From a phage: 64,000 nucleotides of DNA. The stretch lies in sequence record NC_129898.1, one strand, 5' to 3'. The notes under the pieces were generated by a model. That model ran no database searches, was not told the origin of the DNA, and was given only the letters and a program-made list of their open reading frames with translations. The translations under genes and the position numbers were made by a program. Positions 7,985 through 31,561 of this stretch are shown here, piece by piece; position 1 is the stretch's first letter; the number at the start of each line of letters is the position of its first letter.

Positions 7985-7987
7985 ATA

Positions 7988-11657: not shown

Positions 11658-11667
11658 CTTCACCACC

Positions 11668-13411: not shown

Positions 13412-13412
13412 T

Positions 13413-14006: not shown

Positions 14007-14011
14007 TGTTC

Positions 14012-14817: not shown

Positions 14818-14832
14818 TCATACTGTGCGTTA

Positions 14833-15291
14833 TTAGAAGTTTGTTTTTACACGTCCCTTTTCATCTACTTCGTTGTTAGCTAAAAGCGTTACAAAGTCTG
14901 TAAAACGAACATGAAGAACTCTTTTCTTATCCAGGTATCCTAAAGCCACACCTGAGAAATTTACCATCAAAGGTGCTAAAGAAGCTCTAGCACTGAAATG
15001 CTGCTGTTCCACTCTTCCAACACCCTTAGTATAAGAAGGGTTGAGATTGTAAGTTCTGAATCCAAGTTTTGTTGGAGCTTTAGAATTAAAAACAACTTTA
15101 TAACGTTTCTTACTCAGCTTATGTTCCAGAATAAGCATGCCCTTTTCGCCACGGATAAGCTGAAAATCTGTAAAATGCTCTTTTAAGACAAAAGGTAGTG
15201 CCAGCCCCATAGCCTGCCCCCTTTGCACGGCTGTCTCACCAAAAGCTTTTGCATCAGTAAGCTCTTTAGTCAAGTCTATACTTTTGATCAT
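14833..15291 (-). CDS. hypothetical protein
   Basis: 152-aa ORF. Confidence 0.45.
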   Translation of the reverse strand: MIKSIDLTKELTDAKAFGETAVQRGQAMGLALPFVLKEHFTDFQLIRGEKGMLILEHKLSKKRYKVVFNSKAPTKLGFRTYNLNPSYTKGVGRVEQQHFSARASLAPLMVNFSGVALGYLDKKRVLHVRFTDFVTLLANNEVDEKGRVKTNF

Positions 15292-16102
15292 ACCTGGTCT
15301 CCAAAATGTATTGTAGTTCTTTCTTGCCTATACTCTTCATTCCAGCAGTCTTACCTGCTTCTTCTTGAAAAGAAGAATAGCATTCAGCAAACACTCTGTC
15401 AACACCATCAACTAAAGATTTTATGAAATATGTTGATTCTTCAGATTTTGGGTCATCCTTCCCCAATACTTTTCCAGCATTATACCCAACACGCCTTATG
15501 CAGAAGTCGTAGTCATCTGGTGTACTAAAAGAAAATAGCTTATTCTCCCCAATCTCTACAGGATCCCTATTGCACACCTTTTTCTCCCAAATTTGGAAAA
15601 CACATGGCACGTCATAAGGTTTGCCGTTGAGTAAAAACGAGTTCTTGGGGCACCTTTCGCTGTAAATAAGGTGCATCGACATGTCCAGTTTGTTTGCAAA
15701 AAATATTTTTTCAAATGTCCGTGGCAAGATGAAGGCTATAGCCCCACCAGGCTCTAGCAATGATGCACAGTGGTTAAAAAACTTGCAAGCTAAAGACGAA
15801 TTTTTGCCGAATGGAGGATTACCTATGAAGACATCAGCTTTAGGGTACACCTCTAAGAAGTTTGCCTTAATACACGGTGTTGGGCCTTCAAATTCAGGAT
15901 CTGGTACCAAATCGTACGACAGTATCTCTGAAAATAGTTTTGAAAAAGAACCCTTTCCAGCAGAAGGCTCAACGTATGCACAACTCCCATACTTACCTTT
16001 TACTTTACCAACAAGATATTCTGCATACTCAGGGTCTGTGTAATATTTGTCGTTGGACTCTTTCTTGCTCAAGGTGCCTCCAAAATGAAAAGGGAGGCGC
16101 AA
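15266..16102 (-). CDS. SAM-dependent methyltransferase (NPPF motif, probable DNA N6-adenine methyltransferase)
   Basis: Motif IV 'VFIGNPPFGKNSS'. Confidence 0.55.
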   Translation of the reverse strand: MRLPFHFGGTLSKKESNDKYYTDPEYAEYLVGKVKGKYGSCAYVEPSAGKGSFSKLFSEILSYDLVPDPEFEGPTPCIKANFLEVYPKADVFIGNPPFGKNSSLACKFFNHCASLLEPGGAIAFILPRTFEKIFFANKLDMSMHLIYSERCPKNSFLLNGKPYDVPCVFQIWEKKVCNRDPVEIGENKLFSFSTPDDYDFCIRRVGYNAGKVLGKDDPKSEESTYFIKSLVDGVDRVFAECYSSFQEEAGKTAGMKSIGKKELQYILETRYDQKYRLD

Positions 16103-16117
16103 GCCTCCCTCTACTTG

Positions 16118-17101
16118 TCAGATTATCTGAATCAGGGTGTTTTTCATCTCTTCTCGGGTACGGATGTTGTTACGATCACGAACAACAGACCCACAACCTT
16201 CGCAGCGGTAGGTTTTAAATGCACTCAGTTGAGTATACGCCAAAGCCTCTTCCTCGTGAAGGTGTTCTCCACCACAACGTGGGCAACGAACTTTTGACTC
16301 CTCATCTTGGTAGTACAACGACATGTTGGGGTGCTGCTTAGCAAACGGACGCGCCAGCAAATACAGTCCTTCCAGAGACAAGATGTCCCCAACATTATAC
16401 TCCCGCATCTGTTTAAACGCCTCAAGATCACCATGAACACACTTGATCCACATTTCAAATGTGTGGTCAATTAGTTTCTGTCTGGCCAGTTGGAAGTATT
16501 TACATGCATACTCTAACGTGTTTGCATTCAAACGGAATGCCTTTTTAATCATCTTGAGGGTGTCAACCTCTTTGTATGGGCTTGTTGGCGGCAAACCGTG
16601 AAATGCAAATCGTTGGTTAGCCCACCCACAGTCAAAACCAGAGTTGTGTGCTACTGCGACATCACATTTATCCAAATAATACCACAAATCTTGAATCAGC
16701 TCAAGATCGTTGTGGATATCCTCGCCCCACATTTTGTAATCAGGAAGAGCACAGTCAACCACGCTAGGGCTGTCTAACCATTTACCTGCGAAAGTTAGCA
16801 TATAGGGCATAATTTCAATACCGCAGGTTTGAATGTTGGTCTTATAATGCCCAAAGAACCAGCCGTTTGTTGGGGATGTCTCTGTATCATACACCCAAAC
16901 TTTAGCACCTTTGTGTTCTTCAAGGAAGCGCTCCGTTGCCTCTCCTACAATCTCTGACATATTCTCTTGTGCACGTTTAAGCTGTAGCCGGATCCAGCTC
17001 TCACGTGACTCACTACCTAAAAATTCACGAGCAATTTGTCTATTAGTGTATCCCTGTTGCTTCAGTGTTAAAATTTGCTCAAGAGTTAACTTTGTCATCA
17101 T
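16118..17101 (-). CDS. DnaQ-like 3'-5' exonuclease with N-terminal HTH and C-terminal zinc ribbon
   Basis: Exo motifs 'VWVYDTETS' and 'HNSGFDCGW'; C-terminal CPRCGG...CEGCGS. Confidence 0.6.
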   Translation of the reverse strand: MMTKLTLEQILTLKQQGYTNRQIAREFLGSESRESWIRLQLKRAQENMSEIVGEATERFLEEHKGAKVWVYDTETSPTNGWFFGHYKTNIQTCGIEIMPYMLTFAGKWLDSPSVVDCALPDYKMWGEDIHNDLELIQDLWYYLDKCDVAVAHNSGFDCGWANQRFAFHGLPPTSPYKEVDTLKMIKKAFRLNANTLEYACKYFQLARQKLIDHTFEMWIKCVHGDLEAFKQMREYNVGDILSLEGLYLLARPFAKQHPNMSLYYQDEESKVRCPRCGGEHLHEEEALAYTQLSAFKTYRCEGCGSVVRDRNNIRTREEMKNTLIQII

Positions 17102-17113
17102 CGTTAAGATTCC

Positions 17114-17335
17114 TTAGTAAAACTGAAGAATGTCTTTTAAAGCGAAGTCACGATATTCGCCCTTGTCTACATCAAATGCATGCATCAACCACTGCTCTTC
17201 TTTATGATACTCTGTAGATCCAAACCATAAACTAGGCTCAGTAACGCAGCGATCTGCAACAACACCTTTCCAGTTACGGTATTTCATTCTGATCAGAACT
17301 GAATCGCAAGGATTGAATACCTTTTTCATCCCCAT
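17114..17335 (-). CDS. hypothetical protein
   Basis: 73-aa ORF; overlaps the upstream gene end by about 60 nt, so the start is uncertain. Confidence 0.3.
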   Translation of the reverse strand: MGMKKVFNPCDSVLIRMKYRNWKGVVADRCVTEPSLWFGSTEYHKEEQWLMHAFDVDKGEYRDFALKDILQFY

Positions 17336-17879
17336 AGAAATCTCTCTCCTCAGTTTTCTTTATAAACTCCTGCATGTATGCCTCAATAGCCTCATGCTTG
17401 GTGTACTCTGAATTAATGACAAGATCGAGATCCGATTCTGCCCGTGCAATAATCGTAGCCTTAGAGCATCTCCTCAAGAACTTTGTCATATCATCTCTGT
17501 AGTTTTTGTGGAGCGGGAAGTCGCTGTAGTCTTTCTCCAGATAGTCAGCCATCCGGCGCAACGCCTCTGATAAACTGCAATCTGTGTACTCGTTACAGTA
17601 TTTCATCCAGTATTTAAGCACATACCCCTCGAAGGTATTAGTGCATTGGGACAAAACACCCCTGCAACGACCAGTCAGATGATCATGATCTAAACAAGGC
17701 TTACGAAGTGGTTCACACAAGATCGGATCAAGACCATCCTGCTCTTCTGACAATTCTTTTCGAAAGTTGGCTATGTCCTTAGAATCTTTTAGCCACCCGC
17801 TATGAACGGGGGCTTTGACAGCTTTCTTTCTTATTTTACGCTTTGCGATAATCCCTCCAGATGCGCCCTGCCTATCCAA
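17274..17879 (-). CDS. endonuclease VII-like Holliday junction resolvase
   Basis: 'PCLDHDHLTGRCRGVLSQCTN' matches the endonuclease VII zinc/His-Me core. Confidence 0.65.
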   Translation of the reverse strand: MDRQGASGGIIAKRKIRKKAVKAPVHSGWLKDSKDIANFRKELSEEQDGLDPILCEPLRKPCLDHDHLTGRCRGVLSQCTNTFEGYVLKYWMKYCNEYTDCSLSEALRRMADYLEKDYSDFPLHKNYRDDMTKFLRRCSKATIIARAESDLDLVINSEYTKHEAIEAYMQEFIKKTEERDFYGDEKGIQSLRFSSDQNEIP

Positions 17880-18460
17880 TAAGCATCTGCAAGATCGGCC
17901 TTACCTTGTACCAAATTGATCCCATCCAGGAACCCCGGTTCAGATACTTCGCAGGCCTTAACCATCAACTTTTTATCCATCGTAACAGGTTTCTTCACAG
18001 TATGCTCTTTACCTGTCCTTTTGTCAAGCTTTTTCTTCTCCTCAAAAGCAAGTTCTTCAGGAAGATGACTACGAGCAAACTTTTTGGCAGTTGTTGGTGT
18101 CACTGTGTGGACCTTAAACAGGCCGTCATTTTCACAATCTGCTAAAGCATCCCAAAGCATAACTTCAAGACCATAAAACAACCCAGCCAGTTCACGTGTG
18201 GCATCTCCTCGCGATCCGAAGGAGAGCCCTTCCATAACCACGGTGTCAACGCCGTGCGTGTGGATATAATATCTAACCTGTTTGCAGATCCAGTCAATAC
18301 GCTCAGCAGCTGTTGCAAAAGAAACCGTCCCTGGTTTCTTTTCTTTTGCAGACGAGCTTTGGGTTCGTAACACAACCTTATGAACAGGCCTACCATCGTC
18401 CCATACAACGCAGGCCGTGTGGGTAAGAGACTGGTCTATAGACAGCAGTCTTTCTCTCAT
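17831..18460 (-). CDS. RuvC-like (RNase H fold) resolvase/nuclease
   Basis: N-terminal 'LSIDQSLTHTACVV' resembles the RuvC-type first catalytic strand. Confidence 0.45.
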   Translation of the reverse strand: MRERLLSIDQSLTHTACVVWDDGRPVHKVVLRTQSSSAKEKKPGTVSFATAAERIDWICKQVRYYIHTHGVDTVVMEGLSFGSRGDATRELAGLFYGLEVMLWDALADCENDGLFKVHTVTPTTAKKFARSHLPEELAFEEKKKLDKRTGKEHTVKKPVTMDKKLMVKACEVSEPGFLDGINLVQGKADLADAYWIGRAHLEGLSQSVK

Positions 18461-18783
18461 GCTGTCTCCTCTTCATCTGGGGCATAAGCTTTGTCTTTGA
18501 ACAACACAAGGGAGCAAAGCTTAACATCTGTTTCCACACTGGTAAACATGCATAACCGCTCGCCCTCGATCAGCTCACAGTCCTCTTTTAAAACAGCAGA
18601 CCATACACGATCATCTGCGTAATCATCAGTATACAAGATGTATGCAATAGTGTCATCTTCATACAACCGCCACATACCTGTGGCAACAATAAATGTATTT
18701 TTTGTTTTAATGGTGCCTGTTGTATGGTCATCCTCAAAAACAGCTTCCATAATTGCATTATCTACAGAGTTTTTAGTCATCAA
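18457..18783 (-). CDS. hypothetical protein
   Basis: 108-aa ORF. Confidence 0.4.
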   Translation of the reverse strand: MMTKNSVDNAIMEAVFEDDHTTGTIKTKNTFIVATGMWRLYEDDTIAYILYTDDYADDRVWSAVLKEDCELIEGERLCMFTSVETDVKLCSLVLFKDKAYAPDEEETA

Positions 18784-19919
18784 ATTGCTCCAACATTTCT
18801 AAGAACATTAACAAGTTTTGTTTGGTCATTGAATGATCGCTTCATATACAAACAGTCGAAAATTATACTCATCCACTGACCTACGGAAATCCTACGGTCG
18901 ATACCATTGAAATCAGTATACTTAACGGCACCTTTCGGAAACCATTTTTTATACTGATCAATGATTGCTAACCACATCTCCTTCGGTGTGCTGCACTGAG
19001 ACAGCAAGGAGAATGCAGATGCATCTCCAAACTTTCCTTTACCAATAAGCCCTTGGTAAGGCTTAATATTGTCAGCTGAGTCACCACATAGCATTTGATA
19101 ACCGAAGAACAACATTCCATACCCACCAACATCTCCGTTTGGTTTCATGAATATGTTACCCATACCGTTATCAATAAGCATAGGAGTTTCTCTTACAAAA
19201 TCACCTTTATCGTTCCTCATCGGATCGAATACAAGCCCAGGAAGTGTTCGCTGGTCCTTATCTATAGAGATAATAAACTTGTTGAACTTACCTGTTTTCT
19301 GGTAGTGGTTCCAACCTTCAAATTGCTGGATAGCTAACCAGTCGTCAGCTTCAATACCGTTGATCACCTGAGCGTTATACTGCTTTTGGAGATACTGTCT
19401 TGCATCTTCAAGCAACAGTGGTCGAAGAGTATTGTTACGGTTGGCTTTATATCGTTCCGGCATGGGAAGATCTAGTCTGAAATTACCTGTGCCTCCAAGC
19501 ACTCCTACGCACCGATCTTCAGGAATACCAAGATAGTTAAGGACTGCGTTAGCTTTACACTTAATTGTGTGCAAGCAGTTCTCTACAGGATCAGGGGTTT
19601 GGATATCCAAGACATCGAAATCTTCACGTGTCCACGGAATAAACTCCTTGCCAGCTTTTTTACATGCAGCTTCACGGTTGGTGTTCTCAGCCTTTAACCA
19701 ACCGCCAACTGCGTTCTTCTGCCTCCCCCAAAACTCTGTTCGTGTTTTGAACACCTTCTTACGTCCGGAGGCTTTATGTGTTACCTCAATTGTCCTTTTT
19801 TCACAACTTGCTGCAGCTTGATATGCAACCTGATCGAAGTCATAATAAACTATAGCGTCAGGTTCAAGAAGATCAGCTAGACAATCTATGGACTCAATAA
19901 GTGGATATTCTCTACTCAA
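18780..19919 (-). CDS. 5'-3' exonuclease / flap endonuclease
   Basis: 'VINGIEADDWLA' and 'CGDSADNI' metal-binding motifs of the FEN family. Confidence 0.75.
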   Translation of the reverse strand: MSREYPLIESIDCLADLLEPDAIVYYDFDQVAYQAAASCEKRTIEVTHKASGRKKVFKTRTEFWGRQKNAVGGWLKAENTNREAACKKAGKEFIPWTREDFDVLDIQTPDPVENCLHTIKCKANAVLNYLGIPEDRCVGVLGGTGNFRLDLPMPERYKANRNNTLRPLLLEDARQYLQKQYNAQVINGIEADDWLAIQQFEGWNHYQKTGKFNKFIISIDKDQRTLPGLVFDPMRNDKGDFVRETPMLIDNGMGNIFMKPNGDVGGYGMLFFGYQMLCGDSADNIKPYQGLIGKGKFGDASAFSLLSQCSTPKEMWLAIIDQYKKWFPKGAVKYTDFNGIDRRISVGQWMSIIFDCLYMKRSFNDQTKLVNVLRNVGAI

Positions 19920-20220
19920 AGACCCTCCTGTTAGTTACTCTGCAAGATGGTTGGATGCTGTAATGGAATGCATCATCACTCTCTGCAATAAGCGACTCAA
20001 CATCCCAATATTTTTCAAAAAGGAACGGATTAGACCCCCAGTGGTGGGTTATTTTCATCAAGGAGTCTGGTATCAGATAACCAGAGATCTTAACTACATC
20101 ACCAGGTTGAATTGTGTTTTCATGAAGGTTGCTTGCCTTCTTCAGGATCATACCTTTATGATTCTCGTTTGCATACAACTGGACAATATCTTTATCTTCA
20201 ACAATAAAAATTTTAAGCAT
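19912..20220 (-). CDS. hypothetical protein
   Basis: 102-aa ORF. Confidence 0.4.
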   Translation of the reverse strand: MLKIFIVEDKDIVQLYANENHKGMILKKASNLHENTIQPGDVVKISGYLIPDSLMKITHHWGSNPFLFEKYWDVESLIAESDDAFHYSIQPSCRVTNRRVFE

Positions 20221-21918: not shown

Positions 21919-23202
21919 CTATTCCAGAACATCCCAAGTGTCTGGATTAACATTTCGGACGCAGATACCGACAGGGAATTGGTAGTTGTTGTCTTCTGTC
22001 CTTGCTTGATATTTAAAGGTGACAAACTTGCCGATCATTTCCTGCATCCTGCTATAGCTACGCTCCTCGTGCGTGCCTTTCATCTTCATTTTAACAACGA
22101 TGCCTTCCTTGTCAACGCAGATAAGAACACCCTCATCATTCTTATCTTTCTCAACGTCAATAACTTTCACCTCTGCGTCGTTGAACTTTTTCCATTTCAA
22201 TGCTTCAGATGTTCGCTGACCGTATTCGTATTTACCACAGAAGTTACGCATGATAGTACCTTCATACCCTTCGGACATGAATACACCAACAGATTCTTCG
22301 CAATGATCAACTGTGTACGCAATCTCTGCGTCAACAACCTTGATATGGTCAAGCATCAGAGTGGTAATGGTATCTTCTGCATCCATAAGATCCTTGCAGC
22401 GTCCAGACTCTGTTTCTGGATCCCACCACACCTTGTCACTAGGGATATCAAAAATGTGATACTCTAAGTCATAGCTACAGTACCCTCCGTAACGCAAATC
22501 ATCACGAACAGGCTCAACATCAACAGGAATATCTACCTTATTGAAGTTTTTGTATGTTGATAAGCCTGCCTTAATTGCGGCATGACGGCGTTTTTTATCT
22601 GCCTCGTAGTCTTTATCGATCTCGGCCTGAATCTCTTCCTGTGTGCGCCACCGTTTAGCAAGAGACACTATTTTCTGCAGAGGCAGACCATGAATATAGA
22701 TCTCTCCGTCGAGCTGTTTAATCCCGGTGGTGAAGTGGAAAGAACGAAGTTGCTCCAGAAGCTTTCCTTGAATAGGGTAGGACTTATTACCACGGGAAAT
22801 AAATTTAGGCTCCCCATTTTGGAAAACAACAAGTAGACGAAGGCCATCTAACTTACGCAAGATCCAGCAAGGTAATTTAAGTGCCTTTCCACGCTTCAGG
22901 TAGTCATGCACCAGCATGGGTAAAAGGTCAACGCCCTGCTCGCAATCTTCCATATTTTCAACATACCCCAGACGGACTTGTTTTTCCCACTTACTGATCG
23001 CTTCCAGCTCAGCCTGTTGCTCAGCTGTAGTTTCATTGGCACGACCAACGTTCTTAGGTGTGCAGATCGTCTCTTTGTATTGCAGTTTACCGTCAAGCTT
23101 GCCAAACTCTACGATAACCTTATCACCATCCGTGAATACTTTCCACTGTTGGTAGCTGCCATCTTTGTTCAGTGCGTACAGTGTTGTTTTGATCTGATGC
23201 AT
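21919..23202 (-). CDS. DNA ligase
   Basis: Adenylation motif I 'RKLDGLRL' and downstream 'SEGYEGTIMR'. Confidence 0.75.
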   Translation of the reverse strand: MHQIKTTLYALNKDGSYQQWKVFTDGDKVIVEFGKLDGKLQYKETICTPKNVGRANETTAEQQAELEAISKWEKQVRLGYVENMEDCEQGVDLLPMLVHDYLKRGKALKLPCWILRKLDGLRLLVVFQNGEPKFISRGNKSYPIQGKLLEQLRSFHFTTGIKQLDGEIYIHGLPLQKIVSLAKRWRTQEEIQAEIDKDYEADKKRRHAAIKAGLSTYKNFNKVDIPVDVEPVRDDLRYGGYCSYDLEYHIFDIPSDKVWWDPETESGRCKDLMDAEDTITTLMLDHIKVVDAEIAYTVDHCEESVGVFMSEGYEGTIMRNFCGKYEYGQRTSEALKWKKFNDAEVKVIDVEKDKNDEGVLICVDKEGIVVKMKMKGTHEERSYSRMQEMIGKFVTFKYQARTEDNNYQFPVGICVRNVNPDTWDVLE

Positions 23203-23471
23203 TACTCAGCCTCTTCCTTAAAAATTTTAAACATCTCTTCTTTGCTCATTACCAACCAGTCTCCCATAAAGTCAACTAACCAATCCCCTTGGTACAAGAC
23301 AAGGTTACCAAACGGCTCGACAAGCTCGCACATGCGAAGAATATCTCTGGTTCGAACAGGTGACGATGTAAACACACCTGTATCAATCCACCGTTGCAGA
23401 TCAGATACTGATGAAGAGCTTCCGTCAAACTGGTGTGCCTCTACAGGTTTAGCAAGATTAAATAACGGCAT
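23202..23471 (-). CDS. hypothetical protein
   Basis: 89-aa ORF. Confidence 0.4.
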   Translation of the reverse strand: MPLFNLAKPVEAHQFDGSSSSVSDLQRWIDTGVFTSSPVRTRDILRMCELVEPFGNLVLYQGDWLVDFMGDWLVMSKEEMFKIFKEEAE

Positions 23472-23766
23472 TGCAGTCCTCCTTCTCTAATAGGTCTTTT
23501 ATCGGGTAAACAAGCAGGTGCGGATCGTAATAACTTATAGTCTTATTCTGCCACACTATGAACTTAATTACAACTAAATTTACCACATCTTTATCCCCAT
23601 GTAGTCCAACACACAAATTTGTCCATATTTTGTGGTTGAATACTTTGCTGTCGATGTAGATCTTAGTGTCAAACTTATCCTCTATCCTACCTATAAGTTT
23701 AACCAATTCTTTCATCTGATCACCAAACACAGCATCGTTTTCAAGATCTCTGGAGTGCTTGTACAT
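23458..23766 (-). CDS. hypothetical protein
   Basis: 102-aa ORF. Confidence 0.4.
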   Translation of the reverse strand: MYKHSRDLENDAVFGDQMKELVKLIGRIEDKFDTKIYIDSKVFNHKIWTNLCVGLHGDKDVVNLVVIKFIVWQNKTISYYDPHLLVYPIKDLLEKEDCNAVI

Positions 23767-23830
23767 AACTTTCTACCTCACTTGCATACTTTCCGAAACA
23801 AGTAAAGCCGGGATCGCCCCGGCTATGTTA

Positions 23831-24544
23831 TTAAATATATTCTGTTACATCCTTGAAGCTCGAAGGCTTCATAATCTTACCTTTACTGTCGAGGAATATG
23901 ATAACTTTATTTCCGTTGTAGAATTCTTCTTTAGCAACAAAACCTTCATAGCGACCATCAAAGCGTCGCTCAAGATCTTTAATCTCCAACTCGATGAGTT
24001 GTTCAGCAGGCATATCTGCACTGGCACCGTGTGAATACCGCAGATGGTTGACGCGTGCAAACTTGCTGTCATTAGATTTTAGAACCTTCCGCATCATCCC
24101 GCACACATCACCGCGAAGCTGGAACAGCAAAGCTGTTGACAACTCTGCTAAGCGGTAAGCAGACGCTCTTTGCTTAGAGGTATTTTTCGCAGCGATCAGT
24201 GTATCATAAAATTCACCGATCTTAAACTTAAGACCTCGCGGATTATCAAACAGGTTTGACCACTTTTCATGGTTATCGTTAACAAGATAAGCGGCATAAC
24301 TTGTGACAACGTGAAGATCGCAGGCCTCTTTTAGGAGATGATCCCCACCATCACCTTTCTCCAACTCTTCCAAAACTTCATTGAACTCTTCCTCAATGAA
24401 ACTCAGCTGAAGTTCGAATGGTGTGTATGATTTTTTCACTTTAGCTGCTACACGGTTCCAATTTTCCACCCAGTTGGCAGACCAAAGGTAGTTTTCAGGC
24501 TGAGACAGTTTTTCCAGGTTGTCGATCAGTTTAGTATTCAGCAT
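23831..24544 (-). CDS. putative MazG-like nucleotide pyrophosphohydrolase
   Basis: Acidic 'EEEFNEVLEELEKGD...LKEACDLH' pattern resembles the MazG EExxE..D motif; weak. Confidence 0.35.
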   Translation of the reverse strand: MLNTKLIDNLEKLSQPENYLWSANWVENWNRVAAKVKKSYTPFELQLSFIEEEFNEVLEELEKGDGGDHLLKEACDLHVVTSYAAYLVNDNHEKWSNLFDNPRGLKFKIGEFYDTLIAAKNTSKQRASAYRLAELSTALLFQLRGDVCGMMRKVLKSNDSKFARVNHLRYSHGASADMPAEQLIELEIKDLERRFDGRYEGFVAKEEFYNGNKVIIFLDSKGKIMKPSSFKDVTEYI

Positions 24545-24558
24545 TAAAAGGCCTCCGC

Positions 24559-25320
24559 TTACAGTTCCATAAAGTTTTCTACGATGTCAATGAATGTTTT
24601 ATCAGAGAAAGCGTCAACCGCCCCGTTAAACCAAACTGGGATGCCGCGATCCTCATACTGGTAAATGTCACTACGTGAAATGCCATTCTCCCCTAAATGC
24701 TGTGAGTCGTATTTGTTAACGATCAGTAGTTTAGTCCCCTTATTACAGGCAGGGAATAGCTCCCAGTTAAAATTGATAACTGTGTTGGAGCACCCTACAA
24801 GGATAACCATATCATTGCTCGTCAGAGAAGTCAACAGGTCATACATGTCTACATACTTTGGAGCTACTTCTCCGAAGAACACTACATTAGGCTTGACCCA
24901 AGTATACTCGCTTGCATCTACCTCAGAGTATCCAATGTCTTTAATGACGTCATTCCCTTCATCATCCTCGTAGACTATTTCTGGCAAATATCCGTGGACA
25001 TGTAAAATATCTTCATGTTTTACACCAGCACGCTCCAGCAAATCATCTACATTGGTGGTCAGGTTGATCACACGACCAGACCAGCGGGAATACCATTCAG
25101 CTATCCGGAGATGTGCAAGGTTAGGATCAACACTGCCCAGAGCTACACGCCGTGCATTATAAAAGTCATGCACCTTATAGTAGTTCTTGGCAAAGGTGTG
25201 GATGTTACACACCTCATCGATGCTGAAATTCTCCCACATTGCAGTGCCACCAGATCGGAAAGTTGGGATACCAGATTCAGCGCTCAAACCAGCACCGGAG
25301 ATAATGATCAGTCGTCGCAT
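24559..25320 (-). CDS. Sir2-family (sirtuin-like) NAD-dependent enzyme
   Basis: 'ISGAGLSAESGIPTFR', 'TTNVDDL', catalytic 'HVHGY', 'VFFGE' and 'LVGCSN' sirtuin motifs; no zinc-ribbon cysteines. Confidence 0.8.
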   Translation of the reverse strand: MRRLIIISGAGLSAESGIPTFRSGGTAMWENFSIDEVCNIHTFAKNYYKVHDFYNARRVALGSVDPNLAHLRIAEWYSRWSGRVINLTTNVDDLLERAGVKHEDILHVHGYLPEIVYEDDEGNDVIKDIGYSEVDASEYTWVKPNVVFFGEVAPKYVDMYDLLTSLTSNDMVILVGCSNTVINFNWELFPACNKGTKLLIVNKYDSQHLGENGISRSDIYQYEDRGIPVWFNGAVDAFSDKTFIDIVENFMEL

Positions 25321-25328
25321 AAGTGTCC

Positions 25329-25679
25329 TCAGTAGATGTTTTGTTTAATTTCTATTCCAAACTTTTTAAACGAGTCAGCAGCAAGCATGAATTTACGAGC
25401 CGCTGATGGGTTAGAAGTATGCACGAAAATCTTCACGTTGTCAACTACAGGAGGCTTACCAAATACAAATTTTTCCTCCAGTATGCAGAAGCAATCGTAT
25501 CCTTCAAAAATTTCTCCCAAGTCGCTGTCAAAATGCCACTCAGAAACGCGTCTATATAGCTTTCCCTTGTCATTAATGAAATCCATGAACTCAGAAGAAC
25601 TCTTTAGCCAAAGAGCGTCTGGGAGCCCATAATTTGACGGATCTCTCAAATCATCTAGCCACACAATCAGCTTCTTCAT
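25329..25679 (-). CDS. hypothetical protein
   Basis: 116-aa ORF; its ATG overlaps the RNA ligase stop (ATGA). Confidence 0.45.
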   Translation of the reverse strand: MKKLIVWLDDLRDPSNYGLPDALWLKSSSEFMDFINDKGKLYRRVSEWHFDSDLGEIFEGYDCFCILEEKFVFGKPPVVDNVKIFVHTSNPSAARKFMLAADSFKKFGIEIKQNIY

Positions 25680-26611
25680 TGCATATAGTCCTCGTTGTGG
25701 AAATAGCAGTCAAGTATCTCACGGCGTTCCTGCTCCAGGAGGCAATTCCACACATCTTCTGTGTAGTTTCTACGAATGAAGTTTACCATGCCGTAAAACT
25801 CTTCGTCAACACGTTTAAAGATATCATCATCCCAAATCTTCCAAGCTCTACCCCTCATTACGACCTTCCGTGCCAGATAGTAGGGAGACTTGATCTTTAG
25901 TTGCAGGTCATAAGGGTAGTAAGGCTTACGGATCATATACCCTTCGCCCCTTGTTTCTGCAGCCAACTCTTTTGCATAGCTGAACGGAATTTCACGCACA
26001 GTGTGAGGACGTTTTGCACCAAGGTATTTGGCAATACCGTCTAAAGCTGCTTCTGGTAGCATTATTCCAGAATCATTGTATCGGCAACCGATCAAATAGG
26101 CACCATGATCTTCCTGAACAATATGCGGGTCTGAAGGGTGACAAATTTCAAACATGAATGTCATGTTTTCATGGCCCATAACCTTCTTGATAAGATCTAA
26201 ATTACCACATTGCTCCTGGATTGTTTCCTTTGCGAGGTTACAATATGGAGAATCAAGAGACCCTGTTGTTGAGAACAACAGTTCACCTTTGTGAGATGAT
26301 ACCACACCAAGGAATCCGTTCTTTTTCTCTACCGCCGTCACAAGTTTATTGTCAGGCAGGTTGGTGGAATTTTCTCCCAAGTTAAACACTTTTGTGAAGG
26401 GCCATGCCACAACATTTCCTTCATTACCGACAACAATTCCTCGGCACTCTAGTAAACGCGGAGACAAATGCCATAGATTGTTGTAAAATACTTTTCTGGC
26501 ATATTTATAGATCTTTAACCCAAGATCTGGATAATACCGACTGGTTACAAGACCTTTATTCACTAAATCATCTGCATTAAAATACTTCATCATACATTCC
26601 TCGTTTGTCAT
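25676..26611 (-). CDS. RNA ligase (Rnl1-like)
   Basis: N-terminal 'LLECRGIVV' matches the T4 RnlA 'ALECRGIMF' region; 'EKKNGFLG' nucleotidyltransferase motif I variant. Confidence 0.6.
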   Translation of the reverse strand: MTNEECMMKYFNADDLVNKGLVTSRYYPDLGLKIYKYARKVFYNNLWHLSPRLLECRGIVVGNEGNVVAWPFTKVFNLGENSTNLPDNKLVTAVEKKNGFLGVVSSHKGELLFSTTGSLDSPYCNLAKETIQEQCGNLDLIKKVMGHENMTFMFEICHPSDPHIVQEDHGAYLIGCRYNDSGIMLPEAALDGIAKYLGAKRPHTVREIPFSYAKELAAETRGEGYMIRKPYYPYDLQLKIKSPYYLARKVVMRGRAWKIWDDDIFKRVDEEFYGMVNFIRRNYTEDVWNCLLEQERREILDCYFHNEDYMQ

Positions 26612-26654
26612 TTTGTCACTCTATCTTGCCACACAAATAAACTAGTGTCAACAC

Positions 26655-26683
26655 TTGAAATGAACAAAAGAGTTATGTATACT
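26655..26683 (+). promoter_or_regulatory. sigma70-like promoter (TTGAAA-17-TATACT)
   Basis: Hexamers with 17-nt spacer about 30 nt before the kinase gene. Confidence 0.4.
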
Positions 26684-26711
26684 ACCATTAAAATTAAAAC
26701 GGAGGATTACT

Positions 26712-27122
26712 ATGTCTAAAATGCTATATATCGTGCGTGGTCTACCAGGTTCTGGCAAATCAACACTGGCAAATGCACTATCTTTAGAGGGGCTGTACCC
26801 ACATTTTGAGAACGACATGTTCTGGTACGACGACGATGGAAATTACAACTGGGATGCAAGTAAAGTAACACTTGCAGCAAAATGGTGCAAAGATAACGTA
26901 GAAGATATGATGCGTATGGGATACGACCGTGTCGTGGTAAGTAATACGTTTACAAAAGAAAAACATGTGCAAGAATATGTTGACATGGCAATCAGTCATG
27001 GGTATAGTTATACTGTGATCGTGGTTGAAAACCGCCACGGTAATAAGAGCATTCATGATGTTCCAGATAGGGTTGTGGACCGTATGGAGCGTGAGCTTAA
27101 AAACTGCATTAAACTAAAATGA
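26712..27122 (+). CDS. polynucleotide 5'-kinase (P-loop)
   Basis: 'YIVRGLPGSGKSTLA' Walker A and 'VVVSNTF' resembling the T4 Pnk kinase domain. Confidence 0.6.
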   Translation: MSKMLYIVRGLPGSGKSTLANALSLEGLYPHFENDMFWYDDDGNYNWDASKVTLAAKWCKDNVEDMMRMGYDRVVVSNTFTKEKHVQEYVDMAISHGYSYTVIVVENRHGNKSIHDVPDRVVDRMERELKNCIKLK

Positions 27123-27129
27123 GGGATGT

Positions 27130-27684
27130 ATGAAATATTTTGTAACAAGCGATACACACTTTCTCCACCAGCGAGTCATGGAGTTTGATTCATGTCAAAA
27201 ACACAGATCTCAGTATGATCACAATCTTGACAGTATGAACGAAGGAATCATTGCAGAGTGGAACTCTGTTGTATCACCAGAAGACACTGTGTTTCACTTG
27301 GGCGATATTGCATGCACTAAGGATAAGAATATCAACAACTTATTTCCAGATATTCTAAATATGTTGAACGGACATATTATTCTTGTTCGTGGTAACCATG
27401 ACACAAGGACGACTGTCAGAATTATGAAAGAGTTCGGTAATGAGGTTGTAGATTATTACGAGCTTCGCCACAACAAGAATTTGATCTGTATGAGCCATTA
27501 CCAGTTTGCAAAGTGGAACAGAAAGCCTCACGGATCAGTCCAACTGTTCGGTCATGCTCACGGAACCACACAGCAGTTGTTTGGCAGGCAGTTTGATGTC
27601 GGTTGGGATGTGTGGGGGAGACTCTTACCATTAGAAGAGGCATACCGTATTGCAATGAGTCTTGCTATTGACAGCGGGGAGTAA
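27130..27684 (+). CDS. calcineurin-like metallophosphoesterase
   Basis: 'VTSDTHF', 'HLGDIA' and 'VRGNHD' metal-binding motifs. Confidence 0.8.
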   Translation: MKYFVTSDTHFLHQRVMEFDSCQKHRSQYDHNLDSMNEGIIAEWNSVVSPEDTVFHLGDIACTKDKNINNLFPDILNMLNGHIILVRGNHDTRTTVRIMKEFGNEVVDYYELRHNKNLICMSHYQFAKWNRKPHGSVQLFGHAHGTTQQLFGRQFDVGWDVWGRLLPLEEAYRIAMSLAIDSGE

Positions 27685-27731
27685 TCCCTGCTATTTTAAA
27701 GAAAATTGCCACACAAGGAGAATCAGGAGAT

Positions 27732-28082
27732 ATGAAAGAGGAGGATAAGCTGCCATACCTTAAAGTCCCATTTGGAATACTGTCTATGTCAAAAGTTTTG
27801 AATGATACAACTGGAGAGGTTGTTGTTCTTGACTTGTATGACAAGATCGTATACTGCTACCTGCACAACTGGTATAAGCTTGGAGGAAATTCACGCTTCA
27901 CACCCAGCACAAGGAAAATTGCAGCAGATGTTGGGATAAAGAAAACAAAAGCAGCAGCGTGCGTTAAAACTTTAGAATGTGCAGGAGTGGTTGAAATATC
28001 CACACAAGGGAGAGGTAAAAGATGCACATTTTCCAAAGTTTTGCCACCAGAAGAGGTTATTCGAATGTCAACAACTGGTTAG
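27732..28082 (+). CDS. putative winged-helix DNA-binding protein
   Basis: 'STRKIAADVGIKKTKAAACVKTLECAGVVEI' has an HTH-like pattern; immediately upstream of the iteron array. Confidence 0.45.
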   Translation: MKEEDKLPYLKVPFGILSMSKVLNDTTGEVVVLDLYDKIVYCYLHNWYKLGGNSRFTPSTRKIAADVGIKKTKAAACVKTLECAGVVEISTQGRGKRCTFSKVLPPEEVIRMSTTG

Positions 28083-28156
28083 ACCAGTAAAAACTTAAAT
28101 ATCTGTACTATAAGGATTCGTATGTTTTATGTCCATCCAAGAGCAGAGGGTAGTAA

Positions 28157-28238
28157 CTGTCCGTGATACGGACACTACTGTCCGTCACGCGGACACATCT
28201 GCCCGTAATACGGACACTAACTGTCCGCAATACGGACA
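28157..28238. repeat. four tandem 18-bp palindromic iterons (CTGTCCGT-NNN-ACGGACA)
   Basis: Copies at 28157-28174, 28178-28195, 28199-28216 and 28221-28238, spaced 21-22 bp start to start. Confidence 0.85.
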
Positions 28239-28380
28239 CATAAAGAATATAACTAAAATAACTAAATAATAAAAAAAAATAAAAGATCTAGTAATTATGG
28301 TACTAAAGTACATATACTTAACTTATGTAGAATATACTAGATCCTAAGTACCATGTTTTAAATTTATTACTTACTATTGG

Positions 28381-28705
28381 TAGTGTCGGCCCTTCATTGG
28401 CACTCGCCTACGAGGGGCGAGATGCCGGGCCTCCATAGTGCACACAATGACAGGAGTGCATACATGCAGGACTGTTAACATGTGTGGGAGCGAAGCTATA
28501 GCGCAGGCCAAAGGCCGAGCACTAATGTGGACCACCGACGAAAGCTTGCCAGCGCCGTAAGGAGTCGGTTGAGAGCCTCCCGCGCGAGTTTAGTTAAAGT
28601 TTATGTGTGGAAACGGACAGGAAGGCCCCTAAATCGCCACACAGCTGCGTAAACTATACCAAGTAAGGCAATCGCACCAGTTTGATAGAAAAGCTCGTTA
28701 CAAAG
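28381..28705 (+). ncRNA. candidate structured non-coding RNA, class unknown
   Basis: GC-rich ORF-free region with many local helices (GGCCC..GGGCC, CTCGCC/GGCGAG, GGCCaaaGGCC, CCGAC..GTCGG, TGTGTGG..CCACACA) and GNRA-like loops. Confidence 0.25.
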
Positions 28706-28746
28706 CGATACAGTGAGTTTTTCTATAACTTGAAGAGGAGGCAGTT

Positions 28747-29325
28747 ATGAGTTCACGCAAAGATGACCGCGAAAAGATTGCAAAACGTTATCAGAATGAA
28801 GAACAGATGGAGAAAACTTTCAAGTGGAAGCCAGGTTTCCAGCGTAATCATTCTAACGCTCGTGATCGTAAGCATCCGGATAAGTGGCTAACACCGCCAA
28901 ATGATGGCATGCAGGTTGGTGATGAGAAGGAGCTATCGCCTGGAAAAGATGGCAACTACATTCGCACTAAGGACGCTGGTCCAAAGGATGACAGCTATCT
29001 TGTAGATAAGGTTCTTGATGGTATTGATGTAGATGTTGACACCACACGGAACTTTTTTCTTGGGTGGTATCGCACAGGTTTTTTCGACATCAAGGCCATT
29101 CGTCGTGTTTGTGATATTAAAAAGTCTGCATATGATGACGACTCGTTACATCGCACCCTGAGGCAATATTCAGAAAGATATGGTCATCCGGTTATCACTC
29201 TTGACGATGTTGACGAAGTGATGTATCATGCAGAGGTTGTTGCAGGCAGATTTGGTGATGCATATCTTGATATCCTTTCTGCAAACGATGAGGTAATGTT
29301 GAATAAGATTTACTACGAACGTTGA
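28747..29325 (+). CDS. hypothetical protein
   Basis: 192-aa ORF with GAGGAGG RBS. Confidence 0.55.
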   Translation: MSSRKDDREKIAKRYQNEEQMEKTFKWKPGFQRNHSNARDRKHPDKWLTPPNDGMQVGDEKELSPGKDGNYIRTKDAGPKDDSYLVDKVLDGIDVDVDTTRNFFLGWYRTGFFDIKAIRRVCDIKKSAYDDDSLHRTLRQYSERYGHPVITLDDVDEVMYHAEVVAGRFGDAYLDILSANDEVMLNKIYYER

Positions 29326-30622: not shown

Positions 30623-30697
30623 GCCCTGTTAGCTTAGTGGATAAAGCAGCGGCCTTCTAAGCCGTTGACACTGGTTCGAGTCCAGTACGGGGTGCCA
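30623..30697 (+). tRNA. tRNA-Arg (anticodon TCT)
   Basis: Hand-folded cloverleaf: acceptor GCCCTGT/ACGGGGT, anticodon loop CTTCTAA, T-loop GGTTCGAGTCC, encoded CCA. Confidence 0.75.
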
Positions 30698-30827
30698 AGT
30701 TCTTTTTAATGTAGCTTACTTTAGCAGAGTAAATCTTCGGCAAGTGGCGGTAACCACTTTACCGATACCTCATAGTTAGTGGTGAGAACACTAGCTATTT
30801 TAAAAAGAATTTAAATATTAGTATTTA

Positions 30828-30915
30828 GGTGAGTTAATTCCGTAGGGGTAGCGGGGCAGACTGTAAATCTGTTATCATTGCGATTCGGGTGGTTCGACTC
30901 CATCACTCACCACCA
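30828..30915 (+). tRNA. tRNA-Tyr (anticodon GTA)
   Basis: Acceptor GGTGAGT/ACTCACC, anticodon arm CAGACTGTAAATCTG as in E. coli tRNA-Tyr, long variable arm, encoded CCA. Confidence 0.8.
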
Positions 30916-31029
30916 AATTTATATTTTTAAATGCATAAATCATACAGATAATGGCATTGATATTTATCGTCGTTTATACTAGTCACTAACTGCTCGAAAA
31001 TCAGTGTCATTATCAGTATTGTTTATAAA

Positions 31030-31120
31030 AGAGGGTAGGGAGCAATGGTGCTCAAGCGGTCTTGAAAACCGTCCCGTTGAGGATGACTCGATGATGGTTC
31101 GATTCCATTATCCTCTGCCA
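31030..31120 (+). tRNA. tRNA-Ser (anticodon TGA)
   Basis: Acceptor AGAGGGT/ATCCTCT, anticodon loop CTTGAAA, 20-nt variable arm, T-loop GGTTCGATTCC, encoded CCA. Confidence 0.75.
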
Positions 31121-31218
31121 TATTGTTGACCTTGTAATTAAGCGAAAGCCGGAAGCAGAACCGGATTATCAAATGTTACAGTCGTCATCGCCGACTAGCC
31201 ACATGGTCAACATATTGC

Positions 31219-31315
31219 GCTAGGTAAGCCCTTTGGCAAGGGCGAGGATTTTTAATCCTGAAAATAGACGAGGTAGTCGTTGAATACATAGATGGTTCGA
31301 TTCCATCACCTAGCA
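31219..31315 (+). tRNA. tRNA-Lys-like (anticodon TTT) with atypically long variable region
   Basis: Acceptor GCTAGGT/ACCTAGC and anticodon arm GAGGA-TTTTTAA-TCCTG are canonical, but about 30 nt separate the anticodon stem from the T arm and CCA is not fully encoded. Confidence 0.4.
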
Positions 31316-31321
31316 CCTTTT

Positions 31322-31397
31322 GCTGATGTAGCACAATTGGCAGTGCAATTGATTTGTAATCAATAGGTTGCAGGTTCAAGTCCTGCCATCAGCACCA
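31322..31397 (+). tRNA. tRNA-Thr (anticodon TGT)
   Basis: Acceptor GCTGATG/CATCAGC, anticodon arm ATTGA-TTTGTAA-TCAAT, T-loop GGTTCAAGTCC, encoded CCA. Confidence 0.85.
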
Positions 31398-31398
31398 T

Positions 31399-31473
31399 GG
31401 CCCTGTAGCTGGAAGGTTCAAGCAAGCGACTCATAATCGCCAGACGGTGGTTCAATTCCACCCAGGGCCACCA
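31399..31473 (+). tRNA. tRNA-Met or tRNA-Ile2 (anticodon CAT)
   Basis: Acceptor GGCCCTG/CAGGGCC, anticodon loop CTCATAA, T-loop GGTTCAATTCC, encoded CCA. Confidence 0.75.
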
Positions 31474-31484
31474 AATTATAAATA

Positions 31485-31561
31485 CTCCGCGTAGCTCAGC
31501 TTGGTAGAGCGCCTGATTTGGGATCAGGAGGTCGAGTGTTCGAATCACTCCGTGGAGACCA
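31485..31561 (+). tRNA. tRNA-Pro (anticodon TGG)
   Basis: Acceptor CTCCGCG/CGTGGAG, anticodon arm CCTGA-TTTGGGA-TCAGG, T-loop GTGTTCGAATCAC, encoded CCA. Confidence 0.8.

Follow-up and report, generated by a model that had tools for sequence, protein, structure and literature searches.

The window analysed here is the whole 64,000-nucleotide stretch of phage sequence record NC_129898.1. Six of its genes, encoding an RNA ligase, a kinase, a phosphoesterase, a cREC protein, a Sir2-family sirtuin and a MazG-like protein, all lie within positions 23831–27684, and the features of the region are arranged as follows:

23806..23824, minus strand: intrinsic-terminator-like hairpin, closing the ligase-cREC-Sir2-MazG unit
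23831..24544, minus strand: MazG-like nucleotide pyrophosphohydrolase, 237 aa, last gene of the leftward unit
24559..25320, minus strand: sirtuin, Sir2-family, 253 aa
25329..25679, minus strand: cREC, predicted cyclic-phosphate-processing Receiver domain, 116 aa
25676..26611, minus strand: Rnl1-type ATP-dependent RNA ligase, longest open reading frame, 311 aa
26612..26711, no strand: intergenic spacer between two diverging transcription units, 100 bp
26712..27122, plus strand: stand-alone minimal P-loop polynucleotide 5'-kinase, 136 aa, AAA_33 / N4BP2-like
27130..27684, plus strand: calcineurin-type metallophosphoesterase, candidate 2',3'-cyclic phosphodiesterase / 3'-phosphatase, 184 aa
30623..31561, plus strand: tRNA gene cluster (ARAGORN, Rfam), given as context of the module without implying membership

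An earlier note on this DNA had described the ligase, kinase and phosphoesterase as a divergently arranged RNA repair set. The three open reading frames sit exactly where it placed them and its family assignments hold, all three proteins passing the curated Pfam cut-offs. This part of the module is real, but the module does not stop at 25676: the cREC, Sir2 and MazG-like genes had been missed. Over 3.5 kb, the segment carrying the three genes matches 119 phage records at 94–98.5% identity, so the gene set does not reflect chance. Compared with FV3/V5-like phages the window is 95–98% identical, FV3-like records already name these genes, and RNA repair genes are already annotated in more than 100 relatives and described in the literature. 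The region upstream of the module is rich in nucleotide-metabolism genes.

The 100-bp gap claimed between the two strands exists between the longest open reading frames (26612–26711), but Met8 (ATG at 26590, product of 304 aa) is the most likely start of the ligase, which makes the spacer about 120 bp. A GAGGAA lies 6 nt upstream of this ATG and homologues begin MKFN...; several relatives annotate a shorter ligase of 305 aa, starting at Met7. On the plus strand, the spacer holds a sigma-70-like site, TTGAAA-17-TATACT, at 26655–26683, where the phage Gotham record has a predicted promoter, and GGAGG precedes the kinase ATG. The minus strand has a good -35 element (TTGACA at 26651–26646) but a poor -10 element, and no convincing sigma-70 promoter for the ligase strand was identified in the spacer. 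GC skew changes sign here, and the spacer coincides with a genome-wide switch of coding strand. The divergent arrangement described in the earlier note does not characterise the system as such, given that 79 of 80 related loci lack any pair of these genes facing apart; this layout is peculiar to Vequintavirus, and in nearly all other phages the three genes point the same way.

The ligase, the kinase and the phosphoesterase

The ligase is an Rnl1-type RNA ligase and not a DNA ligase, as indicated by both a profile match to T4 Rnl1 and model comparison. It matches Pfam RNA_lig_T4_1 (PF09511) with 55.7 bits against a cut-off of 28.3, and has a PHROG match at 8e-66. Nucleotidyltransferase motifs I, III, IV and V are all kept, with the Lys of KxxG as nucleophile: K96-x-N98-G99 (I), F154-E155 (III), E223-G224 (IV) and K239-x-K241 (V) are invariant in 25 homologues, and their T4 Rnl1 counterparts we take to be K99, E159, E227/G228 and K240/K242. 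Also invariant in 25 homologues are the Rnl1-specific upstream elements ECRG (R57) and PFTKVFN (K74, F76), which align with ECRGI (R54) and PMEKFFN (K75/F77 in PxxKFFN) of T4. The single sequence found nothing useful in the PDB and a family profile was required, which reached T4 Rnl1 (2c5u) at 1e-12 over T4 residues 49–250. An AF2 model (pLDDT 90.7) has T4 Rnl1, Rnl3 and the fungal Trl1 ligase as its top Foldseek matches, with far weaker scores for DNA ligases.

The protein is not a T4 RnlA equivalog, scoring 38.4 bits against a cut-off of 242 for NCBIfam TIGR02308. We found no recognisable counterpart of the C-terminal tRNA-specificity domain of T4 Rnl1 (T4 residues ~255–374), the profile alignment ending at T4 250, and the C-terminal part as modelled would hold about 68 helical residues as against about 120 in T4 Rnl1. 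As this domain is absent or short, a preference of the ligase for tRNA can only be inferred. A ligase match in Ralstonia phage RSP15 is annotated 'metallophosphoesterase', which led us to suspect a fusion of phosphoesterase and ligase there; we rejected it, as the product is a mis-annotated 311-aa ligase adjoining a separate kinase and phosphoesterase.

The kinase was correctly described as a polynucleotide-kinase-like P-loop enzyme lacking a fused HAD phosphatase. It passes Pfam AAA_33 (43.4 bits, cut-off 27), has a PHROG match at 4e-58, and shares with its homologues an invariant Walker A (GLPGSGKST; G10-x2-G13-x-G15-K16-S17-T18), D35 and an E106-N-R-H109 motif. D35 aligns with the Asp of NRDDF in Pnkp1 and is a candidate general base. 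As with the ligase, the single sequence gave nothing useful against the PDB, and it took a family profile to match Pnkp1, CthPnk, T4 Pnk and PSTK. T4 Pnk is the top Foldseek match of the AF2 model (pLDDT 82.5), and the best TM-scores, 0.71–0.72, are to T4 Pnk and CthPnk. There is no C-terminal HAD/DxDxT acylphosphatase domain, the 136 aa being the kinase domain alone, and the GenBank labels '3'-phosphatase, 5'-polynucleotide kinase' in relatives are therefore over-annotation.

The phosphoesterase is, as proposed, a calcineurin-type metallophosphoesterase encoded by its own gene, with its active site intact and its metal-binding motifs invariant. It matches Pfam Metallophos (29.1 bits, cut-off 21.5) as well as Metallophos_2, and phrog_547 at 1.6e-52. 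All of D8-x-H10, G58-D59, G88-N89-H90-D91, H123 and G141-H142-x-H144 are unchanged across 16 homologues, and judged by the motifs DxH, GD, GNH[DE], H and GHxH the binuclear metal site is complete. A C-terminal HH motif kept by most family members is missing from this protein. Searched against all PDB sequences, the family profile matched aq_1665 at 1e-22 and GpdQ-like phosphohydrolases at 3e-4, whereas neither the phosphatase of CthPnkp nor lambda phosphatase came up at E-values of 0.01 or below; the sole close solved relative is the uncharacterised Aquifex aq_1665 (1xm7). Gene context makes the protein a candidate for a role in healing. Such a use of a metallophosphoesterase is not new: bacterial Pnkp heals with one (PMC2190708, PMC3675462), and the phage V5 neighbourhood is published (PMC9503650).

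Linkage across phages and the proposed repair of RNA

To place the three genes in context, we counted neighbours within 8 kb of a ligase homologue in 80 metagenomic phage loci. The linkage extends across many divergent phages: a kinase was present in 74 of the 80 loci, a phosphoesterase, usually adjacent, in 62, and both in 59. When ligases were collapsed at 55% identity, both partners were found in 14 of 20 clusters, and the linkage occurs in two different gene orders. Further, kinase and ligase form a single open reading frame in 11 of the loci. The ligase-kinase-phosphoesterase triad is a conserved core in many phage lineages, and a common heal-and-seal RNA repair pathway, predicted from this gene context, is well supported.

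In such a pathway, the 136-aa kinase would phosphorylate the 5'-OH of broken RNA, the metallophosphoesterase would open and then remove the cyclic or 3'-phosphate to leave a 3'-OH, and the ligase would self-adenylylate on Lys96, pass AMP to the 5'-phosphate and seal the break. Vequintavirinae cREC, sirtuin and MazG-like proteins would probably add to or back up the 3'-end clean-up, or process by-products. We think it reasonably likely that the module is an RNA heal-and-seal repair set of a Vequintavirus (rV5/FV3-like) coliphage. What favours this is the combination of Rnl1 motifs, a P-loop kinase, a complete metal site, the linkage and the kinase-ligase fusions, along with the operon anatomy, the tRNA or tmRNA genes close to many ligases, the dispensability of the Bas54 homologues and the matching published prediction for phage V5. 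Several observations count against it. The phosphoesterase is related to healing phosphatases of characterised function (CthPnkp, lambda phosphatase) at the superfamily level only and lacks the C-terminal HH motif, and the ligase has no recognisable counterpart of the T4 tRNA-specificity domain. Where kinase and ligase are fused, the phage has no phosphoesterase nearby, with no replacement within ~3 kb of the fusion in locus L053. Some of the linkage could also reflect synteny, since the module sits in a region of nucleotide-metabolism and DNA-ligase genes.

The three proteins might instead not form one pathway, the phosphoesterase being a general or signalling phosphodiesterase or a protein phosphatase, the kinase a nucleotide kinase belonging to the neighbouring nucleotide-metabolism genes, and their adjacency to the ligase incidental. 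The phosphoesterase has no characterised close relative, a block of nucleotide metabolism lies upstream, and UMP-CMP, shikimate and gluconate kinases are also among the structures that the kinase model resembles. These resemblances come at lower TM-scores, however, with polynucleotide kinases the best structural matches of the model, and neither the fusions nor a linkage that persists among ligases below 55% identity and in two gene orders fits incidental adjacency. We consider this reading very improbable.

The gene set probably mends cut tRNAs. That the substrate is tRNA, that the phosphoesterase acts on RNA 3' ends and that the purpose is counter-defence we infer; by analogy with the T4 paradigm, the target would be the damage done by anticodon nucleases. 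The tRNA cluster reported about 3 kb downstream was found at 30623–31561, encoding Arg-UCU, Tyr-GUA, Ser-UGA, a long-arm Lys-UUU, Thr-UGU, Met/Ile-CAU and Pro-UGG, and in 31 of 60 related loci the ligase has tRNA or tmRNA genes within 8 kb.

The same chemistry could serve a purpose other than countering anticodon nucleases, such as mending the mRNA and rRNA of phage or host after cleavage by toxin RNases, maturing the phage's unusual tRNAs, or healing 3'-phosphate/5'-OH DNA nicks for the nearby ATP-dependent DNA ligase. Odd tRNAs are indeed encoded nearby, T4 Pnkp acts on DNA too, and the DNA ligase lies 2.5 kb from the RNA ligase on the same strand, with one within 8 kb in 26 of the 80 loci. 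The phosphoesterase also has a weak match to the ligase-associated DNA-damage endonuclease PdeM, but at 20.5 bits this is far under the cut-off of 150. Moreover, the 74 loci with a kinase near the RNA ligase stand against those 26 for DNA ligase, and the kinase is fused to RNA ligase, never to DNA ligase. We regard another purpose as decidedly unlikely.

The leftward unit and an NAD+-dependent alternative

The ligase appears to be co-transcribed with cREC, the sirtuin and the MazG-like gene, an operon anatomy for which tight gene spacing and a terminator are the support. The cREC gene overlaps the ligase stop codon by 4 nt, the sirtuin gene lies 8 nt downstream of cREC, and the MazG-like gene begins 14 nt after Sir2. 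The hairpin that follows has an 8-pair stem with 6 G-C pairs and then a T-rich tail, and the phage Gotham record annotates a terminator at the same site. cREC matches Pfam cREC_REC (51.1 bits, cut-off 27), with D9, D51 and D53 conserved at at least 90%; its role in cyclic-phosphate processing is a prediction (PMC7824862, PMC9503650). The sirtuin matches Pfam SIR2 (1.7e-26) and phrog_2162 (3e-108), carries GAGxS, TTNVDDL and HG motifs, and has been proposed to act on RNA 2'-phosphate like KptA/Tpt1 (PMC9503650). The MazG-like protein matches phrog_671 (5e-22) and has no Pfam match. PADLOC gave no informative match for the six proteins, the sirtuin not matching defence-type Sir2 models.

These genes could instead serve an NAD+-dependent pathway of the fungal and plant style (Iyer et al. 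2022, PMC9503650), in which cREC or the metallophosphoesterase would open the cyclic phosphate to a 2'-phosphate, the kinase would phosphorylate the 5' end and the ligase would seal the break. In the manner of KptA/Tpt1, the sirtuin would then move the 2'-phosphate left at the junction to NAD+, and the by-products, ADP-ribose cyclic phosphate or nucleotides, would be processed by the metallophosphoesterase, cREC and MazG-like proteins. The paper that makes this proposal gives two more sirtuin contexts from other phages and labels the removal of 2'-phosphate by the sirtuin a prediction (PMC9503650). Tight packing of the six genes, four of them in one leftward unit with a terminator, agrees with it, as does the co-directional occurrence of the same set in Proteus phage Mydo, where it adjoins NAD+ salvage genes. 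The modelled ligase fold, too, is about equally close to the fungal Trl1 ligase and to T4 Rnl1.

A search of the window's first 20 kb for NAD+ salvage genes like those of Mydo found only genes for ribonucleotide reductase, thymidylate synthase, exonuclease, PhoH and protease. Phosphoesterase and kinase are widespread partners of the ligase, whereas the sirtuin, MazG and cREC genes are restricted to certain lineages: of the 20 divergent ligase clusters, just 2 have Sir2 and MazG, and 5 have cREC. Forty-four of the 59 triad loci carry none of these three genes within 8 kb, so the triad seems able to suffice by itself and orthologous ligases must work without 2'-phosphate removal. Sir2 occurs together with the ligase solely in related phages of ~145 kb, which may be plain synteny, and no sirtuin is known to have RNA 2'-phosphotransferase activity. 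We think the NAD+-dependent pathway unlikely.

Known systems and significance

The window matches a published neighbourhood. Iyer, Burroughs, Anantharaman and Aravind 2022 (Viruses 14:1977, PMC9503650) described a sirtuin-centred RNA repair neighbourhood, 'type 2', predicted to use NAD+, with Escherichia phage V5 and Proteus phage Mydo as prototypes. Its membership, a co-located sirtuin, T4-like tRNA ligase, cREC, nucleotide kinase and MazG pyrophosphatase, is found here in full, together with the calcineurin-like phosphoesterase; the phage belongs to the same group as V5 and is its close relative, with no substantive difference. The paper takes the sirtuin as its centre and calls the phosphoesterase 'occasional', whereas in our survey, centred on the ligase, phosphoesterase and kinase are the common partners.

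T4 Rnl1 (RnlA) and Pnkp (PseT), which counter the anticodon nuclease PrrC, follow the same logic of kinase, phosphatase and ligase. The ligases belong to the same family and share catalytic residues, and the kinases share a fold class and an equivalent catalytic Asp. The window differs in having a separate metallophosphoesterase instead of the HAD (DxDxT) phosphatase fused in T4 Pnkp, and a ligase that is only a remote relative of T4 Rnl1, with no single-sequence match and a much shorter C-terminal domain.

Pnkp-Hen1 systems (Clostridium thermocellum Pnkp; Capnocytophaga Pnkp1-Rnl-Hen1) likewise combine a P-loop kinase, an ATP-dependent ligase and a binuclear metallophosphoesterase, there a 2',3'-cyclic phosphodiesterase/phosphatase (PMC2190708, PMC3675462, PMC4411300). 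To CthPnk and Pnkp1 the window's kinase has weak profile but good structural matches. The three activities share one polypeptide in those systems, whereas here they are spread over three genes on two strands, and relatives have kinase-ligase fusions only. Furthermore, the phosphoesterase belongs to an aq_1665-like subfamily and not to the lambda-phosphatase/CthPnkp clade, the ligase is Rnl1-type, and no methyltransferase, and hence no Hen1 2'-O-methyltransferase partner, was found among the open reading frames from 21919 to 29325 (Pfam, PHROGs). Fungal and plant Trl1 also pairs an Rnl1-family ligase domain with a P-loop kinase, the ligase model matching Trl1-LIG structures at ~1e-12, and the sirtuin might supply a NAD+-dependent step parallel to Tpt1 (KptA). 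Here there is neither a 2H cyclic phosphodiesterase domain nor a Tpt1/KptA homologue, and the components are separate genes.

The module is real, ordinary and already known as a prediction, and as a genome-scan finding it adds nothing beyond database annotation and the 2022 comparative-genomics paper. A more far-reaching proposal, which we hold to be doubtful, is that aq_1665-like metallophosphoesterases are a distinct RNA 3'-end-healing clade within a self-sufficient three-gene tRNA repair kit, alongside a kinase of minimal size (130 aa) and a short ligase of the Rnl1 type, extended in Vequintavirinae by a Tpt1-like NAD+-using sirtuin. If so, the kit would be spread over hundreds of Escherichia, Pseudomonas, Vibrio, Acinetobacter and Streptomyces phages, and the sirtuin would have a new activity, the NAD+-dependent removal of RNA 2'-phosphate.

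Defences that cleave tRNA are a growing theme (PrrC, RloC, PARIS, retron-associated nucleases, Schlafen-like nucleases and Cas12a3), and almost no phage repair system has been tested apart from T4 Rnl1/Pnkp. In the literature we found no experiments on Vequintavirus RNA repair and no biochemical or genetic test of these proteins. The module is a good candidate for experiment: it is compact, present in the genetically tractable BASEL Vequintavirinae and dispensable on K-12, and it includes two enzyme classes without known activity, the aq_1665-like phosphoesterase and cREC, together with a sirtuin of predicted new activity. Indeed, in Bas54 (Vequintavirinae) the homologues of the module genes can be disrupted by transposons when the host is E. 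coli K-12, which is what one would expect of an accessory set for counter-defence.

Two diverging units in a Vequintavirus locus

The repair gene set in the window is real, ordinary for Vequintavirus phages and already known as annotation and published prediction. The split, differently composed form that the earlier note regarded as unusual is not new. Over the 3.5 kb around these genes, Escherichia phage EPFV3-03/2025 is 98.5% identical to the window, phage FV3 96.8% and over 100 other rV5-like myophages in this genus 94–96%. Relatives' records label the ligase 'RNA ligase (1 and tail attachment protein)', the kinase 'polynucleotide kinase' or 'ATPase', the 184-aa gene 'phosphoesterase', the cREC gene 'cyclic-phosphate processing receiver domain-containing protein', the sirtuin gene 'SIR2 NAD-dependent deacetylase' and the MazG-like gene 'nucleotide pyrophosphohydrolase'. 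The 'tail attachment' function is a name inherited from T4 gp63, without support here. About 18–23 GenBank records named 'Campylobacter phage', with Campylobacter jejuni as host (for example, MG065652 C11), are 94–99% identical to E. coli rV5/FV3-like phages here, which suggests a submission set of mislabelled or contaminating phages.

Features of the repair locus
23806-23824, terminator-like hairpin at the end of the ligase-cREC-Sir2-MazG run
23831-24544, minus, MazG-like pyrophosphohydrolase gene, 14 nt beyond the sirtuin gene
24559-25320, minus, sirtuin gene, 8 nt beyond the cREC gene
25329-25679, minus, cREC gene (Pfam cREC_REC, 51 bits), overlapping the ligase by 4 nt
25676-26611, minus, RNA ligase ORF, 311 aa (Pfam RNA_lig_T4_1, PHROG)
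26655-26683, plus, predicted promoter, annotated at the same site in phage Gotham
26712-27122, plus, kinase ORF, 136 aa (Pfam AAA_33, PHROG)
27130-27684, plus, phosphoesterase ORF, 184 aa (Pfam Metallophos, PHROG)
30623-31561, tRNA gene cluster

The ORF coordinates confirm the positions, strands and 100-bp gap between diverging ligase and kinase that the earlier note had read from sequence, and its family assignments hold, with all three proteins above the Pfam curated thresholds and PHROG matches of 1e-52 to 1e-66. The downstream tRNA cluster was also located. The RNA repair reading was right in outline but incomplete, since the cREC, sirtuin and MazG-like genes had been overlooked. The ligase probably starts at 26590, leaving a spacer of about 120 bp, because Met8 is preceded at 6 nt by a GAGGAA box, the homologues start MKFN... 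and the annotated product in several relatives is 305 aa.

Gene spacing, the terminator hairpin and the phage Gotham record, which annotates a terminator at the hairpin site as well as the promoter, therefore define two diverging units, ligase-cREC-Sir2-MazG leftward and kinase-phosphoesterase rightward. The units part where coding strand and GC skew switch genome-wide, the six genes share one direction in Proteus phage Mydo, and among the surveyed loci only the rV5-like one is divergent. The 'divergent control region' described in the earlier note is therefore a lineage-specific rearrangement and no design feature of the repair system. In Mydo (527-3074 of its locus), nicotinamide phosphoribosyltransferase and PRPP synthetase genes for NAD+ salvage adjoin the repair set; a search of the large ORFs in window 1-20000 gave none.

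Family assignment of the three proteins

A single-sequence search of the PDB with the ligase gave no match. Its family is large (1686 relatives at E ≤ 0.001), and the family profile matches T4 Rnl1 (2c5u) at 1e-12. Across 25 aligned members (41–50% identity), R57, K74/F76 (PFTKxFN), K96-x-N-G99, F154-E155, E223-G224 and K239-x-K241 are invariant, pairing in the profile alignment with T4 ECRGI, PMEKFFN, KEDG, FEF, EGYV and KIKS. In Foldseek, T4 Rnl1 is the closest structure to the AlphaFold model (pLDDT 90.7); archaeal Rnl3 and the ligase domain of fungal Trl1 follow (all about 1e-12), and DNA ligases come solely above 1e-5. Motifs, profile and model neighbours identify an Rnl1-type RNA ligase, not a DNA ligase, the identity that the earlier note had named as refuting its proposal; this answer is at the sequence level. 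Judged by its score against the T4 RnlA equivalog model (38 bits, cut-off 242), the protein is not an equivalog of RnlA, and no counterpart of the T4 C-terminal tRNA-specificity domain is detectable in the profile alignment or the model, which ends in about 68 helical residues. In Ralstonia phage RSP15, a homologue of this ligase (2914-3849 of its locus) is mis-annotated 'metallophosphoesterase' and the adjoining kinase 'NEDD4-binding protein'; tRNA genes lie 2–3 kb upstream.

Relatives of the kinase are stand-alone enzymes of about 130 aa and form a very large family, with the Walker A motif, D35 and the SNT and ENRH motifs invariant in the family alignment. Its profile matches the PDB weakly (3e-5 to 3e-3), and the matches spanning most of the protein (Mucorales Trl1-type kinase, Pnkp1, PSTK, CthPnk and T4 Pnk) are RNA or polynucleotide kinases. 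T4 Pnk is the best Foldseek match of the model (pLDDT 82.5), whose TM-scores are highest to T4 Pnk and CthPnk (0.71–0.72) and 0.45–0.62 to small-molecule kinases. Several GenBank records use the label '3'-phosphatase, 5'-polynucleotide kinase', whose phosphatase half is wrong, because the 136-aa protein has no HAD domain.

All five metallophosphoesterase motifs are invariant across 16 phosphoesterase homologues (28–45% identity). The sole close solved relative, Aquifex aq_1665 (1xm7), is a structural-genomics protein without assigned function, and the profile found neither CthPnkp phosphatase nor lambda phosphatase in the PDB at E up to 0.01; genomic context therefore makes this protein a candidate 3'-end healing enzyme. 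Metallophosphoesterase-type healing is established in bacterial Pnkp (PMC2190708, PMC3675462). A C-terminal HH dipeptide (...DHH), present in 13 of the 15 other aligned homologues, is missing from the window protein; the Vequintavirus C-terminus is ...AIDSGE.

Gene linkage and the predicted pathway

We surveyed 80 IMG/VR loci from a ligase profile scan (36–88% identity) for partners among six-frame ORFs within ±8 kb, counting again over 20 ligase clusters at 55% identity.

Genes near the RNA ligase (loci; clusters)
Kinase: 74/80; 17/20
Phosphoesterase: 62/80; 16/20
Kinase and phosphoesterase: 59/80; 14/20
DNA ligase: 26/80
MazG-like: 13/80; 2/20
cREC: 13/80; 5/20
Sir2: 11/80; 2/20

The usual order is phosphoesterase-ligase-kinase or kinase-ligase-phosphoesterase, tightly packed on one strand. 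In eleven loci, representing nine distinct sequences, a single protein of about 430 aa combines kinase and ligase, matching AAA_33 plus RNA_lig_T4_1 in Pfam; such a fusion strongly indicates that the two enzymes act together. On the fusion-phage contigs L042, L045 and L049-L053, no phosphoesterase was found near the fusion; a tmRNA gene lies about 5 kb downstream, with tag peptides AANDANYGDYALAA and ANDDVYNLALAA. Among cultured phages, 677 records contain the ligase, with hosts including Escherichia, Pseudomonas, Vibrio, Streptomyces, Klebsiella and Acinetobacter.

The evidence best supports heal-and-seal repair in the manner of T4, with the triad as a self-sufficient core: the kinase would make the 5'-phosphate, the metallophosphoesterase would remove the 2',3'-cyclic or 3'-phosphate and the ligase would seal the RNA break. 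A published prediction instead describes NAD+-using RNA repair, with the sirtuin acting like KptA/Tpt1 (PMC9503650), and PMC7824862 defined cREC and connected it with RNA ligases. The sirtuin route is possible for the Vequintavirinae extension, but it is weakened by orthologous ligases mostly having no sirtuin, cREC or MazG nearby (all three are missing within ±8 kb in 44 of the 59 triad loci), and the linkage survey likewise makes it unlikely that the ligase requires a 2'-phosphate end.

For heal-and-seal repair, the substrate would, by analogy with T4, be tRNA cut by host anticodon nucleases, with which dispensability on K-12 and tRNA/tmRNA proximity are consistent. tRNA or tmRNA genes lie near the ligase in 31 of 60 loci, a count that includes related phages and has no proper baseline. 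The HIDEN-SEQ preprint (10.1101/2025.11.20.689424) covers the Vequintavirinae phage Bas54, and its supplementary tables record many transposon insertions in bas54_0206-0211, homologues of all six window genes; the phage can thus do without them on E. coli K-12, which fits accessory counter-defence genes. We found no biochemical or genetic studies of Vequintavirus repair proteins in the literature, and the remaining value of the gene set is as an experimental system.

Other observations in the window

The ARAGORN call 'tRNA-??? (atcc)' at 31219-31317 (plus) is a tRNA by Rfam (37.5 bits), with the anticodon loop UUUUUAA of Lys-UUU and, within its variable region, an additional arm of 26 nt (stem GACGA/UCGUU). 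It folds as a cloverleaf plus an extra hairpin (-34.8 kcal/mol, z = -4.0), an unusual class-II-like long-arm tRNA-Lys, at least 95% identical in more than 110 Vequintavirus genomes, whose records label it Lys or OTHER or leave it unannotated. PrrC classically targets tRNA-Lys(UUU). At 30828-30912 (plus), Rfam (39 bits) detects a long-variable-arm tRNA-Tyr (GUA) that is annotated in relatives and was missed by ARAGORN in the window. At 4824-7709 (minus), the anaerobic ribonucleotide reductase NrdD apparently occupies two ORFs (N-terminal half 6540-7709, C-terminal half 4824-5816) about 720 bp apart, with a 183-aa ORF (5937-6488) in the gap; the split may reflect interruption by a mobile element or homing endonuclease.
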